The notes beneath the pieces are model-generated. The model did not search any database and had not been told where the DNA came from. It was given only the letters and a program-made list of their open reading frames with translations. Positions 26,621 to 62,622 of a DNA stretch of 64,000 bases are shown here, piece after piece. The DNA comes from Parcubacteria group bacterium Licking1014_17. Lineage in GTDB: Bacteria; Patescibacteriota; Minisyncoccia; 2-02-FULL-40-12; IGHO2-01-FULL-4-A. How positions within the stretch are numbered: position 1 is the first letter of the stretch; each line of letters opens with the position of its first letter. The stretch lies in NCBI GenBank assembly GCA_007376485.1, contig VMGJ01000006.1, positions 779-64,778 on the forward strand, in the 5' to 3' direction. A program made the position numbers and the translations under genes.

Positions 26621-27535
26621 ATGGGTAAAATTAACGAAATAAAATCCGAATTCCTGGAATACATCGAGATTGAGAAGAATCGCTCGCCGAGAACCGTGGC
26701 AAATTACGACCATTATTTGAGCCGCTTCTTTCAGTTCACGAAGCCGGAGTCCATTTCCGACATATCCGAGGACTCAATCAGAAAATTCAGATTGTATCTA
26801 AACCGGCTGGCTGATGAAAGGGGGCAACCGCTGAAAAAAGTCACCCAGAATTACCACGTAATCGCTTTGCGGGCGTTTTTGAAATATCTTACCAAGCGCA
26901 ATATCAAATGCGTGCCGCCGGAGCGAGTTGAGCTGGGCAAACAGGAGGAAAGAGAGGTTACTTTTCTGGACGAAAAAGAACTGGAAAAATTTTTGAAGTC
27001 GCCGGCGGGCGATTCGGTGGCAGCTTTGCGCGACCGGGCGATTCTGGAAACTCTTTTTTCGACCGGCTTGCGCGTTTCGGAGCTGTGTTCTCTGGACAGG
27101 GATGGCATCAATCTTGGCAGGGGAGAGTTTTCGGTCCGCGGCAAGGGCAATAAAATCAGGGTTGTGTTTTTATCGGATACGGCGAAAGAATGCCTGAAGA
27201 CCTACTTGAATAAGCGCATGGATGCCGACCCGGCTCTTTTTATCCGTGTTCCGAAGTCGGGCAAGTTCGAAAAATTTCCGGACCTGCGGCTGACTCCGCG
27301 AAGCATCCAGAGAATAATCACCAAATACGCGATTATATCCGGAATTGTGGGGAAAAAAGTTTCGCCCCACACCCTCCGTCATTCTTTCGCGACCGATTTG
27401 TTGCGAAACGGCGCGGATATCAGGTCTGTGCAGTCGTTGCTTGGGCACGCCTCCGTTACGACGACGCAGATTTACACCCATGTTACCGATAAACAATTGA
27501 GAGAGGTTCACGAGCGGTTCCACAGGAAGAAGTAA
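26621..27535 (+). CDS. xerC: Tyrosine recombinase XerC/XerD
   Basis: 304 aa. C-terminal catalytic HTLRHSFATDLLRNGADIRSVQSLLGHASVTTTQIYTHV with the active-site Tyr. Confidence 0.85.
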   Translation: MGKINEIKSEFLEYIEIEKNRSPRTVANYDHYLSRFFQFTKPESISDISEDSIRKFRLYLNRLADERGQPLKKVTQNYHVIALRAFLKYLTKRNIKCVPPERVELGKQEEREVTFLDEKELEKFLKSPAGDSVAALRDRAILETLFSTGLRVSELCSLDRDGINLGRGEFSVRGKGNKIRVVFLSDTAKECLKTYLNKRMDADPALFIRVPKSGKFEKFPDLRLTPRSIQRIITKYAIISGIVGKKVSPHTLRHSFATDLLRNGADIRSVQSLLGHASVTTTQIYTHVTDKQLREVHERFHRKK

Positions 27536-30089: not shown

Positions 30090-30446
30090 TGGTGGACTCG
30101 GGGGGAGTTGAACCCCCGTCTGCGGGTGGTCACAGGGAAGCACTACACGCTTGTTCCATTTAGTTTTGATCCGTGAGCCGTTAAACGGACAAAATGCTCA
30201 CAGCCCGCCACAGTTTAGTGCGATGAAGCCCCGTTATGGCGGCCAAAACTTCAAAGTTTCTCGCAATAAGCGTCTCATCCCGTTAGCGAGAATCGCGGGT
30301 GAAACGGATGCCTTAATTTAGGCAACTGCCATTACAGGCGTTAAAGCGTTGTAATTTGCACTTGTGTTTTTGCGGGTTTTTACAAGGTTCCGCGAACTTG
30401 GCGTGCGCTTCGGCTGATCATGCCTGCATCGAAGCCTTTCAAGCCC
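30090..30446 (-). ncRNA. ssrA: tmRNA (SsrA), about 357 nt
   Basis: 5' GGGCUUGAAAGGCUUCGAUGCAGG. 3' T-arm GGGGGUUCAACUCCCCC, then acceptor CGAGUCC-A-CCA with encoded CCA. Acceptor pairing gives the G3-U70 Ala identity pair. An intrinsic terminator follows, and smpB is 1 kb away. Candidate tag frame GCA AAT TAC AAC GCT TTA ACG CCT GTA ATG GCA GTT GCC TAA (about 30318..30359). Confidence 0.8.
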
Positions 30447-34461: not shown

Positions 34462-37400
34462 ATGCCCGAAAATTTTAATTTCGCTGAAAACGAGAAAAAG
34501 ATACTCAAATTCTGGAAAGAACAGAAGATTTTTGAGAAATCAATGGAACAAAGGAAAAAGTCCAAGCCCTTTGTGTTTTTTGAAGGTCCGCCGACGGCAA
34601 ACGGCTTGCCCCACGTGGGGCACTTTATGTCCCGTTCATATAAAGATGTTTTCGGACGCTATAAAACAATGCGCGGGTATTATGTTTTGAGGCGAGCCGG
34701 CTGGGATACCCACGGGTTGCCGGTAGAAATTGAAGTAGAAAAAGGGCTTGGTCTCAAAAATAAAAAAGAGATTGAAGAATATGGGATTGCAAAGTTCAAC
34801 AAAAAAGCCAAAGAGAGCGTATGGAAATACAAATCCGAATGGGAAAGAACTTCGGAAAGGATGGGCATCTGGCTGGATTTTGATAACTACTACGCCACCT
34901 ACAAAAACTCTTATATAGAATCCGTCTGGTGGTTTCTTAAAGAGGCGTGGAATAAGAAACTTCTGTATAAGGGGCACAAGGTTTTGCCTTACTGCACACG
35001 CTGTGGGACATCGCTTTCAAGCCACGAGGTGGCGCAGGGCTACAAAGACGTTACCGAGCCGGCGGTTTATATAAAGTTCAAACTTGAAAAAAAGCAAAAA
35101 ATAAAAGGGTGGAATATTCCCAAAAACACTTGTTTTCTTGCTTGGACGACAACGCCATGGACTTTGCCGGGAAACGTTGCCCTGGCAGTGGGCGAAAAAT
35201 TCAAGTATCTCGTAGTTCGCATTGGCGATGAGTTTTTGATTTTAGCCGAGGGCAGGGAGTCGGTGCTAAAAGGGGAACGCGAGCTGGTGAAAAGTTTTGC
35301 CGGGAAGGACCTGGTCGGTCTTCGATACGAATCTTTATTTAAAATTAAATCCCTATCGACTAAAAAATCACACCGGATTTATCCGGCGGATTTCGTTACC
35401 ACCGAAAACGGCACCGGCATCGTGCACACGGCGGTGATGTACGGCGAGGACGATTACGAACTCGGCAAAAAAGTCGGCTTGCCTATGCACCATACCGTGG
35501 ATTTGCAGGGAAAATTCACCAAAGAAGTAAAGGGACTGGCTGGGCAGTATGTTAAAGATGCCGACAAGGATATTATAGAGACACTCAAAAAAGGGGGACT
35601 GTTATACGGTCAGGAGCCCTATACCCATTCCTATCCGCACTGCTGGCGGTGCAAACTGCCGTTGATTTATTACGCCAAGGATTCCTGGTTTATCCGGATG
35701 TCGTCTCTGCGTAAAGAATTGATTAAAAGAAACGAAACGGTAAACTGGCGACCCGAGCACATTAAAGAAGGGCGTTTCGGAGAGTTTTTGCACGAGGTTA
35801 AAGACTGGGCGTTAAGCCGAGAACGTTATTGGGGGACTCCGTTGCCGGTTTGGCAATGTCTCAAATGCAAAAATTATATTGCCGTAGGGTCAATCGAGGA
35901 TTTGGAAAAATACCGCCCAAGGAAGAAAAATGTTTATTACATTCTTCGCCACGGGCACAGCGAAAAAAACGCCAACGGCGGAAAAGAAGACATTATCAGC
36001 ACCCTGCTTGAATCGGACAAATACCATCTGACCCATAAGGGAGTGGAGCAGGTAAAAAAAGCTATTGAAGAACTGAAAAAGAAAAAGGTCAAGCTGGACG
36101 CGATTTATTGCTCGCCGTTTATCAGGGCGAAAGAGACGGCGGAAATAGTCGGCAATCACTTCGGGATAAAAGCAAAAACAGATAAAAGATTAAGCGAAAG
36201 ATTGCACGGACCGATGTGCGAAGGCAAACCGGAAAGGCTTTGCGAAATGCTGGTGCCGGCGACTCCGGAAAGCAAGCATGCGGGCGGCGAGTCAATCATG
36301 GAGGTCAAGGCAAGGATGTCCCGGTTTCTTAGGGAAATTGATGAAAAACACGAAGGTAAGACAATATTGGTCATCAGCCATGGCGATCCGCTGTGGGCAC
36401 TGACGGCTTTCACCGAGAATATTTCCGAAGATAAAATAATAAGCACGCGGCAGCGCCTGATGCCCGGGACCGGCGAATTGAAAAAAATCAACCTCAAAAA
36501 TTATCCCTACAACGTGGAGGGCGACCTTGATGTTCACCGACCGTTTATTGATGGAGTGGCGCTAAAGTGCCCAAAATGCGGCGGGAAATCCGTAAGAACG
36601 CCGGAAGTCTGTGACTGCTGGCTCGATTCCGGCTGTATGCCTTTCGCCCAGTGGCATTATCCTTTTGAGAATAAAAATTGGATAGACAAACCGAGTGGTT
36701 CGGACAAACAGTATCCGGCTGATTTTATTGTCGAAGCCATTGACCAAACCAGGGGCTGGTTCTACACATTGCTGGCCGTGGCTACTATTCTGGGCCGTCC
36801 CGCTCCGTATAAAAATGTCGGTGTTACCGGGTTCGCCATGGCGAGCGAGGGCAAGAAATTGTCCAAGTCGGAAGGAGCGGGCGAAGGATTCACTAAAATA
36901 ATAGAAGAATACAGCGCGGACGGCTTGCGATGGTATCTTTTTACCGTCAATGATTTAGGTGACAATAAGACGATTACCGCGCAGGATGTCCAGAAGAAGT
37001 TCAGGAATTTTCTTTTGATTTTATTCAATACTCTAAGATTTTTCAGCTTGTATCCCATAAAGGATAAGGCATTGCTGATAAACGAACCGGAACCCCAGGG
37101 GCTTTTGGATAAGTGGCTCCTTGCCCGCCTTAAAAAAACAGTGGCGGAGGCGACAAAACTTCTTGACAGTTATTATCCGACTCCGGCGACGCGGCTGATC
37201 GGGCAGTTCGTAGTTGAGGATTTGTCGAAATGGTGGCTCCGCCTGTCGCGCCAAAGATTCCAAAGGCCCGAGAGCGAACTTTCCCACGTATACGTGAGTT
37301 CATATTTGAGGTATATCCTTTTGGAAATCGCTAAGTTGCTTTCGCCGTTTATCCCTTATTTTACGGAACATATATACCGCGAATTGAATCACGGGCTTAA

Positions 37401-37974
37401 GGTTTCCGTGCCCAGCATACATTTGCTCGACTGGCCCAAGCTGGCTCCGTTTGAGGAAGCAGAAAAATTGGCGCTGGAAGAAATGGAAGATGTCAGGCAT
37501 TACGCGGCTTGTGGGCTGGCTCAGCGCCAGATAAAACAGATAAAAGTCAGACAACCGCTGGCATCTGCGAAGATTAAGCGGGAAAAGCGTTTCGACGCGG
37601 AATTGCAGGATATATTGAGAGCCGAGCTTAACGTGAAAGTAATCGAATACGATCCCGCCCAAGCCGGGGAAGCGGAGATAGACGATAACATCACGGCTGA
37701 ACTGCGCCAGGAGGGCTATGCCCGCGAGCTTGTGCGCAATATCCAGGAAATGCGCAAGGACGCCAAATACCCGCTGGATTACAAAGTCGGGGCGTATTGG
37801 GAAACCGAGAACAAGGAGCTGGCGCTTGCCATCGAAAATCTGCGGGACTTGATTAAAAATGATTCCTTATTGTCCGAAATAAATCGCGGCAACGCCGGTG
37901 CGGGGCATTTTGACGTCGAAAAGAAATTCAATCTGGCGCCAGGCGTAGAAATTTGGCTGGGACTTAAAGCTTAA
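34462..37974 (+). CDS. ileS: Isoleucine--tRNA ligase carrying an inserted histidine-phosphatase-like domain
   Basis: 1170 aa. HVGH motif, CP1 editing domain (TTPWTLP), WALSRERYWG, KLSKS. About 200 aa at residues ~488-690 (nt ~35920..36530) show RHGHSEKN and VISHGDPLWAL motifs, between CLKC and CPKCGG. Confidence 0.9.
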   Translation: MPENFNFAENEKKILKFWKEQKIFEKSMEQRKKSKPFVFFEGPPTANGLPHVGHFMSRSYKDVFGRYKTMRGYYVLRRAGWDTHGLPVEIEVEKGLGLKNKKEIEEYGIAKFNKKAKESVWKYKSEWERTSERMGIWLDFDNYYATYKNSYIESVWWFLKEAWNKKLLYKGHKVLPYCTRCGTSLSSHEVAQGYKDVTEPAVYIKFKLEKKQKIKGWNIPKNTCFLAWTTTPWTLPGNVALAVGEKFKYLVVRIGDEFLILAEGRESVLKGERELVKSFAGKDLVGLRYESLFKIKSLSTKKSHRIYPADFVTTENGTGIVHTAVMYGEDDYELGKKVGLPMHHTVDLQGKFTKEVKGLAGQYVKDADKDIIETLKKGGLLYGQEPYTHSYPHCWRCKLPLIYYAKDSWFIRMSSLRKELIKRNETVNWRPEHIKEGRFGEFLHEVKDWALSRERYWGTPLPVWQCLKCKNYIAVGSIEDLEKYRPRKKNVYYILRHGHSEKNANGGKEDIISTLLESDKYHLTHKGVEQVKKAIEELKKKKVKLDAIYCSPFIRAKETAEIVGNHFGIKAKTDKRLSERLHGPMCEGKPERLCEMLVPATPESKHAGGESIMEVKARMSRFLREIDEKHEGKTILVISHGDPLWALTAFTENISEDKIISTRQRLMPGTGELKKINLKNYPYNVEGDLDVHRPFIDGVALKCPKCGGKSVRTPEVCDCWLDSGCMPFAQWHYPFENKNWIDKPSGSDKQYPADFIVEAIDQTRGWFYTLLAVATILGRPAPYKNVGVTGFAMASEGKKLSKSEGAGEGFTKIIEEYSADGLRWYLFTVNDLGDNKTITAQDVQKKFRNFLLILFNTLRFFSLYPIKDKALLINEPEPQGLLDKWLLARLKKTVAEATKLLDSYYPTPATRLIGQFVVEDLSKWWLRLSRQRFQRPESELSHVYVSSYLRYILLEIAKLLSPFIPYFTEHIYRELNHGLKVSVPSIHLLDWPKLAPFEEAEKLALEEMEDVRHYAACGLAQRQIKQIKVRQPLASAKIKREKRFDAELQDILRAELNVKVIEYDPAQAGEAEIDDNITAELRQEGYARELVRNIQEMRKDAKYPLDYKVGAYWETENKELALAIENLRDLIKNDSLLSEINRGNAGAGHFDVEKKFNLAPGVEIWLGLKA

Positions 37975-54646: not shown

Positions 54647-54904
54647 ATGTTTTACACGTATGTGCTAAAAAATAAGAATAATCGTTTGTACACTGGATTC
54701 ACTTATGATCTACGGAAACGCTTCAAGGAGCACAATGACAAAAAGTCAGAATATACAAAGCATCGTGGCCCCTATGAATTGATATACTATGAGGCGTGTC
54801 TTAATGAAAATGATGCTCGCCAAAGAGAAAAATATCTTAAATCTGGGACGGGTAAACGTTATCTCAAAGATAGATTGAAGCGTTTCCTGTCTCATACGGG
54901 ATGA
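54647..54904 (+). CDS. GIY-YIG nuclease-domain small protein
   Basis: 85 aa. FYTYVL...LYTGFTYDLRKRFKEHN matches the GIY-YIG motif. Confidence 0.7.
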   Translation: MFYTYVLKNKNNRLYTGFTYDLRKRFKEHNDKKSEYTKHRGPYELIYYEACLNENDARQREKYLKSGTGKRYLKDRLKRFLSHTG

Positions 54905-59669: not shown

Positions 59670-60713
59670 GTGGCCATAGATAGCCAGCAAACAGAAATCA
59701 CGGTAAAGACCGAAACAGTCCTTAGATTAGCAGGTCTGGTTTTGCTTTTCGTTTTGCTTTATATGCTCCGCGATGTCGTGGTTATCGTCCTGATAGCCAT
59801 ATTCCTGGCGTCGGCGTTGAATCCGCTTGTCAATTGGCTTGAAACCAAAAAAATACCGCGGCTCCTCGGCGTTTTGATTATTTACGTGACATTCTTCGGT
59901 ATTGTAACTGTGCTTTTGTCCCTGATAGTGCCAATCGTGTCTTACGAGCTGAATCAGCTTCTGTCATCTCTGCCTAAAATCGCTTCCTCGGCAAGCGCCG
60001 CCGGCTCTTCGTATTATTCAGACGCCCTTAAAGAAATTCAGAATGTCCTGAATAATCTAACGCAGTTTCTGACTCTGTCCTCGAAATCAATCCTTAATCT
60101 TGTAATCGGCATTTTCGGCGGCGTCATATCTTTTCTGGCGATTGTCATCATATCTTTTTATTTTTCGGTAATGAAGCAGGGCGTGGCGTCATTTATCAGG
60201 TCCATATTGCCGGAGAAATATGAAGATTACGTAGTGGAGTTATGGGCGAGGTCGGAGCGCAAAATCGGGCGCTGGTTCCAGGGGCATCTGCTGTTGGCGA
60301 TTTCAGTCGGGCTTTTGGTGTATGTCGGCTTGTCGCTGTTCCATCTGAAATACGCGCTGATTTTGGGAATAATCGCGATGGTTTTTGAAATCGTGCCGGT
60401 GGCGGGACCGGTTCTGTCCGCGATTCCGGCCGTGATTTTTGCTTTCATCCAATCTCCGGTTCTCGCGATATGGATTATTGTTTTTTATATTATTGTCCAT
60501 CAGATTGAAAGCAATGTTATCGCGCCGCTGACGCTGGGCAAAGCCACCGGGCTTAGTCCGGTCGTGGTTATAATAGCCATACTGGCGGGCGTAAAACTTG
60601 ACGGGATTTTGGGAATAATTCTGGCGGTGCCGATGGCGGTGGTTATAGTGGAACTGTTTGAAGATTTGGCGCGGGGCAAAGAAAGCCGCAAAGCCCAGGT
60701 AATAAACTCTTAA
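59670..60713 (+). CDS. AI-2E family transporter (UPF0118/PerM-like)
   Basis: 347 aa. Eight TM helices with typical AI-2E topology. Confidence 0.8.
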   Translation: MAIDSQQTEITVKTETVLRLAGLVLLFVLLYMLRDVVVIVLIAIFLASALNPLVNWLETKKIPRLLGVLIIYVTFFGIVTVLLSLIVPIVSYELNQLLSSLPKIASSASAAGSSYYSDALKEIQNVLNNLTQFLTLSSKSILNLVIGIFGGVISFLAIVIISFYFSVMKQGVASFIRSILPEKYEDYVVELWARSERKIGRWFQGHLLLAISVGLLVYVGLSLFHLKYALILGIIAMVFEIVPVAGPVLSAIPAVIFAFIQSPVLAIWIIVFYIIVHQIESNVIAPLTLGKATGLSPVVVIIAILAGVKLDGILGIILAVPMAVVIVELFEDLARGKESRKAQVINS

Positions 60714-60722
60714 AATTTAATT

Positions 60723-60794
60723 GCCGGAGTAGCTCAATGGCAGAGCAATCGCTTCGTAAGCGATAGGTTGTGAGTTCAAGTCTCACCTCCGGCT
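60723..60794 (+). tRNA. tRNA-Thr (anticodon CGU)
   Basis: GCCGGAG acceptor. D-arm GCTC/GAGC. Anticodon stem ATCGC/GCGAT with loop TTCGTAA. T-arm GTGAG-TTCAAGT-CTCAC. 72 nt. CCA not encoded. Confidence 0.8.
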
Positions 60795-60796
60795 CA

Positions 60797-60924
60797 TGGA
60801 GCGAGCCAATTTATTGGCTCGCGTTGAGGCTTGAACGGCGGAACGATGTCCCGAGCGCAGTCGGCGCGAGGGACAGTGAGCCGGTGGCTAGGCCAAGCCG
60901 GCGGAAGCCGGCGAGAGCCGAAGC
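60797..60924. repeat. GC-rich 128-bp insert between the tRNA-Thr 3' end and a perfect 20-bp copy of that 3' end (60925..60944)
   Basis: caagtctcacctccggctca occurs at 60777..60796 and at 60925..60944. Confidence 0.6.
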
Positions 60925-61103
60925 CAAGTCTCACCTCCGGCTCAAAATTTTCAATCAAGTCAACTACACAAAGCTGAAGTCTGGGAGTTGACTAATTATT
61001 TGATATATTATACGATTAGCGTTAGCTTTTTTACATCTTATTAAACGGGAAGTTTTAAATCCATGTCGCGATGATATCGCGCAATCATAGAAAGGAGGAT
61101 TTC

Positions 61104-61295
61104 ATGGACATTAAGATTTTCGGACTTCCAATGGGGGAATTCAGTAAAATGTTGATTGCTGAGGCGATAGATAAAGCACCACTTTGTACCGAAATCTCGC
61201 CTATTCCCATCCGTTTTGTTGACTCGTCAACCTATGTGCAAGGCAAAGGGGGTGGCAATAATGATTCGGGTCGAGGTAGACATGACAGGCGATGA
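61104..61295 (+). CDS. Hypothetical small protein
   Basis: ATG after AGAAAGGAGG. Internal to track ORF 61071..61295. Overlaps the next small ORF (61261..61461) in another frame. Confidence 0.3.
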   Translation: MDIKIFGLPMGEFSKMLIAEAIDKAPLCTEISPIPIRFVDSSTYVQGKGGGNNDSGRGRHDRR

Positions 61296-61461
61296 TTCCT
61301 CTCATGACCATAAACAAATTGCCACAACTATTGCTGATGTACTGGGCGAGGGGGCTTGTGGATACTTCCGGAGCTCTGTGGTTGTTACTGTGGTTACCTC
61401 GTTGTTGGGTGATGAGATGGCTCCTCGTGTCTCCAAGCTCTATCCCGAAGAACCCAAGTAG
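61261..61461 (+). CDS. Hypothetical small protein (MIRVEVDMTGDD...)
   Basis: ATG after AAAGGGGGTGG. Internal to track ORF 61216..61461. Terminator-like hairpin plus T-run at about 61500..61535. Confidence 0.35.
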   Translation: MIRVEVDMTGDDSSHDHKQIATTIADVLGEGACGYFRSSVVVTVVTSLLGDEMAPRVSKLYPEEPK

Positions 61462-61556
61462 TGCTAATCTAACACCCTGGATTTCCTCGTCCAAATTGTC
61501 CCGTGCGCGTTCGGCGGGGCTTTTTTATTTTCAAATATTTTGATACAATATTATTA

Positions 61557-62622
61557 ATGCAGGATTTGCGGTCGCTAATTCAGGAAATGCAAAGCAAGTT
61601 CCCGGCTGTCCGGGAGCGTCTTTGACTTAGACGGAATCAAAAAACGAGCGGCGGAAGTGGAAAAAGAAATGGCTGACCCGGCGTTTTGGTCCGACCGCCA
61701 AAGAGCCGGCGCTCTTTCAAAAGAATTATCGGGCTTAAAGGAAGAAGCCGCCTTTTGGGAGCATTTTGAAAACCATTTGGAAGATTATGCCGGAAAAACG
61801 AGCGAGGAACTTGCCGTACTGGAGAAAGAAATTATAGATTTCAAAAGGAACTTTGAAAAACAATACCTGAAACTTTTTCTTTCGGGCAAGTACGACAGGG
61901 GCGATGCGATTGTTTCTTTCCATTCGGGAGCCGGCGGAGTGGACGCGCAGGATTGGACTTCAATGCTCGTGCGCATGTTTGAGCGCTACTGCGAGCGTGA
62001 AAGTTTTGAACACACCTTACTGAACCGTTCGGAAGGGGAGCAGGGCGGCGTCAAAAATGCCGTGCTTGAGGTGAGAGGGCGCTATGCCTACGGTTACCTG
62101 AAAGGCGAATCCGGTGTTCATCGCCTCGTGAGAATTTCTCCTTTTTCGGCGAAAGCCCTGCGGCATACGTCGTTCGCGCTTGTTGATGTCCTGCCGGTTC
62201 TGGAAAAAGAAGCCGTTGCCATCAATCCCGCGGACATAGAAACGGATACTTTCCGTTCTTCCGGTCCCGGCGGGCAGAACGTGAATAAGCTTGAAACGGC
62301 GGTCAGGATAAAGCACATCCCCACCGGAATCACAGTGGCGGTGCAGTCGGAACGTTCGCAGGCACAGAACAAAGACAAAGCAATGGGCTTGCTTCAATCG
62401 CGTTTAGCTAGTTTAATGGAGAAGTACCGCGTAAAGGAACTGTCGGAGCTTAAGGCGAAAATCGGAGCGGGCGAAATTGAATGGGGAAGCCAGATTCGCT
62501 CGTACGTGCTGAACCCTTACAAACTGGTAAAAGATCACCGGACGGGAGTTGAAGATTCAAATCCGGATAGGGTTCTTGACGGCGATATCGAAAAGTTTAT
62601 TGAAAAAGAAATAATAAGCTAA
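61557..62622 (+). CDS. prfB: Peptide chain release factor 2 with programmed +1 frameshift (CTT TGA C at 61620..61626)
   Basis: Frame 0 is [22 protein letters not shown]-stop, with an upstream SD-like GGGAG. The +1 frame continues [22 protein letters not shown]... through the GGQ-containing body ([10 protein letters not shown]). Confidence 0.85.

Follow-up and report, generated by a model that had tools for sequence, protein, structure and literature searches.

The only transfer RNA (tRNA) gene in a 64,000-nucleotide (nt) stretch of the genome of Parcubacteria group bacterium Licking1014_17 (contig VMGJ01000006.1; the whole stretch is called the window below) is followed by a GC-rich insert and a second copy of the tRNA 3' end. 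Insert and second copy together are probably one copy of a family of small non-coding, non-autonomous insertion elements. Its members sit 3' of tRNA and transfer-messenger RNA (tmRNA) genes in Patescibacteria (Candidate Phyla Radiation, CPR), which are tiny groundwater bacteria. The family is best classed with the small non-autonomous mobile elements, as a new sort whose architecture is matched to the target in an unusual way.

The tRNA gene of the window was called with ARAGORN and Rfam (RF00005), and the tmRNA gene with Rfam. The gene in question is a tRNA-Thr(CGU) at 60723-60795 on the plus strand (Rfam, 72.1 bits), and the genes around it are ordered M16 peptidase, AI-2E transporter, tRNA-Thr, about 750 bp, prfB. 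The 20-mer CAAGTCTCACCTCCGGCTCA occurs exactly at 60777-60796 and again at 60925-60944. In tRNA numbering, it runs from C56 of the T-loop (60777) to two nucleotides past N73 (60796). No third match was present in the window with up to three mismatches allowed, and no second copy appeared in 100 shuffles. The 128 nt between the copies (60797-60924) have a GC content of 64-68%, compared with about 45% in the flanks, and their folding gave z scores of -5.0 alone and -7.2 together with the tRNA against shuffled controls. The perfect repeat and the GC-rich segment with hairpins had both been described in the original prediction and are confirmed. Absent from that description was TGAGGCTTGAA (60825-60835), which lies inside the insert and is complementary to the T-loop and the 3' strand of the T-stem. 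That the repeat arose by chance or from misassembly has a negligible probability. In addition to the result of the shuffles, the same locus was found in an independent ENA assembly (L001) and the architecture in more than 100 other contigs, so that this explanation is already refuted.

For comparison, 77 genomes of relatives were retrieved via the AI-2E transporter gene. Several of them showed tRNA-Met 3' ends duplicated 134-170 nt downstream, always from C56, across GC-rich inserts laid out like the tRNA-Thr insert. A covariance model (R1) trained on five inserts, the tRNA-Thr insert of the window among them, matched further copies behind a second tRNA-Met, behind tRNA-Ser and behind the tmRNA of the window. 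A motif scan of public metagenomes, its pattern matching only about half of the variants in sequence, added at least 120 stretches. After deduplication, the set from Patescibacteria genomes and metagenomes comprised at least 121 distinct cores. A tRNA ends 29-209 nt upstream (median 64) on the same strand in 95 of the 121 cores listed, and most of the cores without an upstream tRNA sit at contig ends. The targets among the matches listed include at least 33 tRNA anticodon types and tmRNA, always in the tRNA orientation. The insert does recur elsewhere, at no fewer than these 121 sites, and the fallback guess of the original prediction, a miniature element, holds, with the insert being a full-size member of a recurring family. 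Rfam 15 at gathering score matched only tRNA and tmRNA at the element loci (the window and 30 member loci), and no description of such elements was found in full-text literature searches.

From 5' to 3', the element consists of a 5' motif, G0, the hairpin HP1, G1, the domains P2 and P3, and copy 2 of the repeat. The core measures about 85 nt, about 100 nt with the guide segment and 125-145 nt with the 5' region, and most members have 96 nt from G1 to copy 2. The tRNA-Thr copy has the following parts:

60723 to 60795, plus strand: intact tRNA-Thr(CGU) gene, the target or host (ARAGORN, RF00005).
60770 to 60774, plus strand: 5' strand of the T-stem of the tRNA.
60775 to 60781, plus strand: T-loop.
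60782 to 60786, plus strand: 3' strand of the T-stem.
60787 to 60793, plus strand: 3' strand of the acceptor stem, followed by N73 at 60794.
60777 to 60796, plus strand: copy 1 of the repeat, C56 to N73+2, within the functional tRNA.
60797 to 60800, plus strand: TGGA, a leftover of the 5' region (the anti-acceptor segment G0 or the GA of the 5' motif).
60801 to 60822, plus strand: HP1, the perfect hairpin GCGAGCCAA-TTTA-TTGGCTCGC.
60824 to 60835, plus strand: G1, the antisense "guide" TTGAGGCTTGAA, complementary to tRNA positions 54-64 with one G.T.
60836 to 60884, plus strand: P2 domain, in which M1 pairs with M2 across a GGA/GA internal loop and encloses HP2 (RNAalifold).
60836 to 60848, plus strand: M1 strand of P2, CGGCGGAACGATG.
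60849 to 60873, plus strand: HP2.
60876 to 60884, plus strand: M2 strand of P2, GTGAGCCGG.
60887 to 60924, plus strand: P3 domain, closed by GCT (60887-60889) with the terminal AGC (60922-60924).
60891 to 60893 with 60917 to 60919, plus strand: inner pairing of P3, GGC with GCC, below the apical hairpin GCCGGC-GGAA-GCCGGC.
60925 to 60944, plus strand: copy 2 of the repeat, C56 to N73+2, non-functional, closing helix P1 with G1.

All four family features (G1, the M1/M2 pairing with its GGA/GA loop, the P3 closure and the copy from C56) can be read in this copy, which scores 78 bits with R1 as part of the training set of that model. Its G1 is also complementary to positions 56-64 of copy 2, and its 3' end reads ...GAAGC. 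The copy is complete from HP1 on, and it looks 5'-shortened because the 5' motif (GA)ACGAAGTGA and most of G0 are missing. The 20-nt repeat is still perfect, which suggests a fairly recent insertion.

The pairing of G1 with its own tRNA was Watson-Crick in all members at positions 54-56, in 81-96% at positions 59-63 and in 60% at position 64, and fell to background from position 65 on. The T-stem score of G1 was 3.7 out of 5 for the own tRNA and 2.6 out of 5 for other tRNAs, and tandem G.A occurred at positions 57/58 in a quarter of the members. G0 is a segment of 6-12 nt complementary to the 3' strand of the acceptor stem. It reached at least 6 nt in 16 of 65 members (25%), against 1.9% with other tRNAs. 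The 5' motif, (GA)ACGAAGTGA or GAGCGAAGCGAA, stands 2-15 nt past N73 in 16 of 85 members, where 3.5% were expected. A hairpin homologous to HP1 lies directly 5' of G1 in 65 of the 85; its stem shows compensatory changes, and its loop is CTGC in 23. We also considered whether G0 and G1 were copied from the 5' strands of the tRNA, and rejected this origin. In stems with a G50.U64 pair, G1 was the complement of the 3' strand six times and carried the base of the 5' strand in no case.

An exact repeat of at least 8 nt, starting 38-40 nt past M2, was present in 85 of the 95 members listed. It starts exactly at C56 in 52 of these 85, and in 49 of the 52 there is no identity further to the left. In the 52 cases the 3' end of the element (...GAAGC, GAGGC or GCGGG) abuts C56, and 32 of these elements end in the pentamer GAAGC or GAGGC. 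The modal length of the repeat is 19-23 nt, with an overall range from 8 to more than 60 nt. At eight loci the repeat extends over 36 to more than 60 nt into the locus-specific flank, including the terminator of the tRNA itself, which indicates that it was made from the target and not supplied by an attP site. The two copies differ at 25 positions, and G1 pairs with copy 1 at 22 of these and with copy 2 at none. Since copy 2 decays while G1 fits the real tRNA, copy 1 is the functional tRNA end. The tRNA remains whole after insertion, and on the tRNA-sense strand a three-way junction is closed by G1 together with the repeat.

These properties of the repeat bear on the original prediction, which had taken the locus for an integrase-mediated insertion of a genomic island or phage of which only a stub remains. 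The locus would then be a decayed island or phage, or a pair of attL/attR sites as in cis-mobilizable elements (CIMEs), with the interior deleted to 128 bp. Integrases have sublocation preferences in tRNA genes, the T-loop class included, and the repeat from C56 of the T-loop to the 3' end of the tRNA resembles the sites of that class. An intact tRNA is restored in both cases, and a XerC/D-type recombinase is encoded in the window (26621-27535, plus strand). However, this Xer-like protein exceeds the cut-off for archaeal XerA but not those for bacterial XerC and XerD. No other tyrosine recombinase was found in the 64 kb, and its gene lies 33 kb from the tRNA-Thr element. The element itself has no integrase and no cargo, and the 128 nt between the repeats leave no room for an open reading frame (ORF). 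The presumed stub has a fixed size throughout the family and a covarying fold, and represents about 100-130 nt of conserved, structured sequence with an antisense copy of the target. One and the same core stands behind all the anticodon types counted above and tmRNA. The repeat varies in length while its left end is fixed at C56, and at the eight loci with flank and terminator it contains more than an attP could supply. No match to the element was found by BLAST in phage and plasmid records or by a motif scan of viral contigs. The flank-containing repeats, together with the conserved fold and size, remove the decayed-island explanation, which we regard as very improbable and for practical purposes already refuted. 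What stands of the earlier interpretation is the association of the insertion with a tRNA 3' end. As a separate observation, the XerC/D-type gene is located 2.4 kb from the tmRNA-associated element.

The fold was evaluated on 40 aligned members with the P1/P2/P3 structure, against 500 shuffles and slid controls. Paired cells amounted to 85.1%, compared with 68.0% in the shuffles. The covariation score was 0.467, against 0.155 in the shuffles, none of which reached it, and 0.07-0.11 in the slid controls. Changes on both sides were seen in 33 of 41 pairs, including all 16 pairs of P3. The upper stem of P2 also covaries (pair 15:58 is C:G in 32 members and G:C in 7; pair 20:54 is G:C in 34, A:U in 3 and C:G in 2). 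Mismatches were G.A in 170 cases and C.T in 14, and this large excess indicates that the folded strand is the tRNA-sense strand. According to the original prediction, a homologous segment conserved as a functional RNA unrelated to integration would refute such an insertion. The homologues do show a conserved structured element, but it is still related to insertion.

Structured domains directly 3' of tRNAs are known from theta ribozymes of phages, which are of the hepatitis delta virus (HDV) type, from 3' external transcribed spacers (3'-ETS), and from mascRNA and viral tRNA-like structures (TLS); like the tRNA-like structures, the element with copy 2 can mimic an acceptor/T minihelix. In contrast to these RNAs, the element gave no ribozyme match in Rfam, and a terminator often stands between it and the tRNA. 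A search of 60600-61200 using cmscan with permissive filters returned no intron family and no known self-cleaving ribozyme, whether HDV-like, hammerhead, twister, pistol, hatchet or hairpin, at E values up to 10. An HDV-like nested double pseudoknot would fit the order of the strands (copy 1a, copy 1b, HP1, G1, HP2, C, M2). It was rejected on two grounds: the partner of M2 is M1, a pairing that covaries, and GGCGG is retained in the tmRNA copy despite a different acceptor. That copy lacks the M2-acceptor pairing required by such a topology and has the M1/M2 pairing instead. Hammerhead, hairpin and other ribozymes formed from the junctions were also rejected, with the conserved core nucleotides missing and no match in Rfam. 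An intron in the T-loop, of the archaeal bulge-helix-bulge (BHB) type or of group I, does not agree with a tRNA that is intact without splicing and a copy 2 that decays. Group I introns have at least 200 nt and group II introns at least 400 nt, sizes that a core of about 85 nt does not reach, and the tRNA is uninterrupted. Finally, synthesis by fold-back (a sequence followed by its reverse complement) was rejected for the palindromes between tRNA and element. They are orthologous terminators, present also at the empty site L057 and elsewhere duplicated after copy 2.

The tRNA-Thr and the tmRNA are both of the tRNA-like genes of the window, and each carries one element. The parts of the tmRNA member are:

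30090 to 30446, minus strand: tmRNA gene (Rfam).
30052 to 29864, minus strand: second family member, 3' of the tmRNA (covariance model, 46.9 bits, E about 1e-8).
30052 to 30048, minus strand: CGAGA, in the 5' part of the member.
30047 to 30026, minus strand: HP1.
30023 to 30012, minus strand: G1, GGGAGAGTTGAA, complementary to the T-loop and T-stem of the tmRNA at 11 of 12 positions.
30011 to about 29967, minus strand: P2, followed by an expanded P3 that extends to 29881.
29880 to 29864, minus strand: copy 2, decayed, TAACTCCCCTTCCATAA.

A perfect 20-bp palindrome or terminator at 30095-30053 on the minus strand includes the CCACCA end of the tmRNA.

Comparison of relatives revealed empty sites. 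The tRNA-Thr of L008, 26 nt before prfB, is unduplicated, as is that of L013, and about 30 orthologous tRNA-Met sites, 0-45 nt before an M16 peptidase gene, are empty. The element is missing at the initiator tRNA-Met of L057, while L038, L061 and L066 carry one there. An all-against-all comparison of the loci for pairs of filled and empty alleles yielded only the pair L057/L066. The empty site that the original prediction had looked to related genomes for was thus found for tRNA-Thr and tRNA-Met genes, but none at the nucleotide level for the window locus. In L066, an insert of about 120 nt (2586-2700) with direct repeats ACACTTGGCC and hairpins of its own stands right after copy 2 of the tRNA-Met element; it is missing in the close relative L057.

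The copies vary in their state. Tandem (L134), nested (L124) and decayed copies were observed, and the 5' regions range from full, with 5' motif, G0 and HP1, to G1 only in the 5'-shortened copies (L091, L125, L162). About ten solo copies, including L117, L137, L149, L155, L172 and L183, have a G0, G1 and copy 2 that match one another and no intact tRNA within 450 nt upstream. The cores are specific to the genome and not to the tRNA. Random pairs of cores are 70.6 +/- 7.7% identical and cores at the same tRNA type on different contigs 72.6%, and one core of L066 (L066b) is similar to that of the second element in this genome. Cores at different tRNAs of one contig are far more similar than this background. 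Those at tRNA-Arg and tRNA-Lys of L125 are 97.6% identical, while their two G1 segments differ at 5 of 12 positions and each fits its own tRNA. This suggests that the guides are rewritten at each insertion.

In L157 (1561-8100), two copies (98.8% identical) of a unit made of spacer, element and tRNA-Glu 3' copy form direct repeats that flank 6 kb. The second copy has no tRNA nearby and duplicates the spacer and the tRNA-Glu repeat of the first. Genes for a MazF-like toxin and a DinG-like helicase lie in the 6-kb segment, but no recombinase or integrase was found in it, so that we rejected it as an autonomous partner. Its ends carry an 18-nt inverted repeat, ATGTTACAATTTGCCTAC.

A doubtful alternative is that the element is a functional RNA module of benefit to the host, either a tRNA-like minihelix RNA or a cis-acting 3' trailer. 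In the minihelix version, G0 paired with the acceptor would stack on G1 paired with the T-stem, with P2 and P3 in place of the T-loop. Such a module might govern how its own tRNA is folded, processed or protected, for instance by acting as a decoy against nucleases cutting at the T-loop or acceptor, and would have spread via duplication and gene conversion. The strong purifying selection on the structure, the tandem G.A motifs and the match of the guides to the resident tRNA are consistent with this possibility. The element with copy 2 can form a coaxial helix like that of acceptor and T-arm, ending in N73-CA; the initiator tRNA-Met elements of three genomes have a common idiosyncratic G0 with a U.G wobble; and neither tRNA-like gene of the window is without an element. 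However, the element is sporadic among close relatives (about 4 of 35 tRNA-Met sites). The tandem, nested and 5'-shortened copies, the solo copies without a tRNA, and the copy 2s that decay without a compensating change in G1 (22:0) also argue against a host function, as do the terminators that often stand between tRNA and element.

We favor the mobile-element reading, in which the element would be a selfish, non-autonomous unit. Its folded strand, as RNA or single-stranded DNA, might recognise the T-arm and the acceptor 3' strand of a tRNA gene via G0 and G1, and the element would be joined to the gene where a break separates T55 from C56. A 3' junction that is precise, a 5' junction that varies, with truncations and filler, and a duplication of variable length would resemble the products of a staggered-break or target-primed insertion. 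Afterwards, the downstream copy would decay, and cores might be homogenised or exchanged between the copies of one genome. We put forward tentatively, as a less probable form of this process, programmable guide-bearing elements in which a folded strand of about 100-140 nt pairs via G0/G1 with the 3' half of the tRNA gene and inserts between T55 and C56 by a target-primed or staggered-break reaction, the guides being rewritten for each target.

Several observations weigh against the mobile-element reading. A search of about 50 ORFs in the window with Pfam/NCBIfam found no reverse transcriptase or transposase, and no enzyme was identified; it turned up only the XerC/D-type recombinase and a small GIY-YIG protein (54647-54904, plus strand). 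Many copies lie behind a terminator, which makes co-transcription with the tRNA doubtful. The counts of G.U (37) and A.C (27) do not decide between RNA and single-stranded DNA. The nearest relatives by flanking protein, with only 59% identity at best, offer no empty site at the nucleotide level for the window locus. Two elements on one 378-kb contig (L096/L177) have cores that are 87.9% identical, with an identical P3 and unrelated HP2. This mosaic and the odd G0 shared by the initiator tRNA-Met elements of L038, L061 and L066 (TTGTGGGTGGGG, with a U.G wobble) suggest long residence at one tRNA type with gene conversion of the core within a genome, as opposed to the rewriting of guides suggested by L125. 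At the initiator tRNA-Met site, the native terminator that intervenes is not part of copy 2, and the repeat there looks like part of the inserted module and not a simple target-site duplication. Moreover, the structural conservation fits a domesticated functional RNA equally well.

An unlikely account of the reaction is that the elements are by-products of repairing tRNA-gene breaks made by small GIY-YIG nucleases. It is a mechanism for the mobile-element reading and not a true alternative to it. The T-loop would be cut with a 2-nt 3' overhang, and the core would be copied from another element through T-loop microhomology on both sides. T54 and T55 have their complements in G1 (AA in 100% of members) whereas copy 2 starts at C56, and an offset of 2 nt is what would be expected from a cut at GTT/C that leaves 3' overhangs of that length. 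Such overhangs are left by GIY-YIG homing endonucleases, for instance SegB, according to PMC2330249. Cassettes of the giy2 type abut tRNA 3' ends in all four cases (L001, L050, L056, L182), and that of L050 has the same duplication from C56. On the other hand, GIY-YIG genes occur in only 6 distinct loci among about 200, the proteins of 85 amino acids (aa) consist of the catalytic domain only, and the repair model leaves the conserved HP1 between G0 and G1 unexplained. The small GIY-YIG cassettes share the site and may lead to the enzyme.

Some features of these cassettes were noted in their own right. In L001 (15208-15660; same genome, about 0.9-1.7 kb past the right end of the window), a cassette for a protein of 80-85 aa immediately follows tRNA-Gln, and next to it comes a tRNA 3'-end copy that has decayed. 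Three of the four cassettes (L001, L050 and L182) begin with ACTTCGAC. The GIY-YIG gene of the window at 54647-54904 (plus strand) represents a second subtype and stands between two genes for surface proteins, away from any tRNA. This second subtype also sits within the 5' portion of a tRNA-Met gene in L131 (1476-1835), where there is a 5' duplication of 14 nt, GACGCGGGGTAGAG.

The element shares features with several known systems but fails the defining features of each testable one. Site-specific non-LTR (long terminal repeat) retroelements and short interspersed nuclear elements (SINEs), such as R2 in ribosomal DNA and the Dictyostelium TRE near tRNA genes, insert by target-primed reverse transcription. 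They resemble the element in their precise 3' junction at a fixed target position, their variable 5' end and their target duplication of variable length, as well as in their small non-autonomous copies with a structured 3' region and a specific RNA gene as the target. In contrast, no reverse transcriptase was found among the window ORFs, and the element has internal segments complementary to the target. Bacteria are not known to have a reverse transcriptase of this class.

Guide-bearing elements include group II introns with their exon- and intron-binding sites (EBS/IBS), IS110/IS1111 with bridge or seek RNAs, and IS200/IS605 with guides and with PATE or MITE (miniature inverted-repeat transposable element) derivatives. 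In these systems, as in the element, a short element-encoded segment pairs with the target, the pairing correlates with the choice of site, and the non-coding part is small and structured. However, a group II ribozyme is far larger than the element, for which Rfam gave no match. IS110 and IS605 make no long duplication and require an adjacent transposase, whereas the duplications of the element are 18-60 nt and no DEDD or HUH transposase ORF is adjacent in the window or the loci read. The guides of the element also span 10-19 nt of the tRNA 3' half and differ from copy to copy.

MITEs and REPINs (Correia, RPE, ERIC, REP doublets) are likewise small, GC-rich, hairpin-forming, multi-copy, non-coding and intergenic. 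Unlike them, the element has ends (TGGAGC... and ...GAAGC) that are not inverted repeats and a duplication of 8 to more than 60 nt in place of a short one of fixed length, is located almost exclusively 3' of tRNA and tmRNA genes and always oriented the same way (a tRNA is upstream of 95 of the 121 cores listed), and is flanked by antisense and sense copies derived from the target.

Other features of the window were recorded in passing. Between copy 2 and prfB lie about 600 AT-rich bp (60945-61545) that are missing in the relative L008. This segment contains a promoter-like TTGACT...TATAC with a ribosome-binding site and a frameshifted small ORF (61071-61295 and 61216-61461) with no match in Pfam. 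A terminator at 61497-61530 has a stem that resembles HP2 of the element (85% over 20 nt). In prfB (61557-62622), the well-known site of programmed +1 frameshifting, CTTTGAC, is present at 61620-61626. A 1170-aa class I aminoacyl-tRNA synthetase (34462-37974, plus strand; Pfam tRNA-synt_1 and Anticodon_1), probably IleRS, has a histidine-phosphatase domain (His_Phos_1) inserted at residues 493-659.

If the mobile-element reading is true, the genomes of CPR/Patescibacteria, which are famous as minimal, would hold an abundant class of structured non-coding elements for which no annotation was found. The family is a structured RNA or DNA family missing from Rfam, and it yields false integration scars for island-finding tools that rely on tRNA fragments. 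Each element holds copies of its own target in both senses, one antisense and one direct. Mechanistic questions are how the target-matched segments of 10-19 nt are set for each tRNA, and which enzyme cuts and joins between T55 and C56. A guide-directed insertion reaction this small would be of interest to genome engineers. In the less probable form with programmable guides, the family would represent a bacterial SINE-like or RNA-guided insertion system without a described counterpart, able to colonise every tRNA and tmRNA gene without inactivating its targets.

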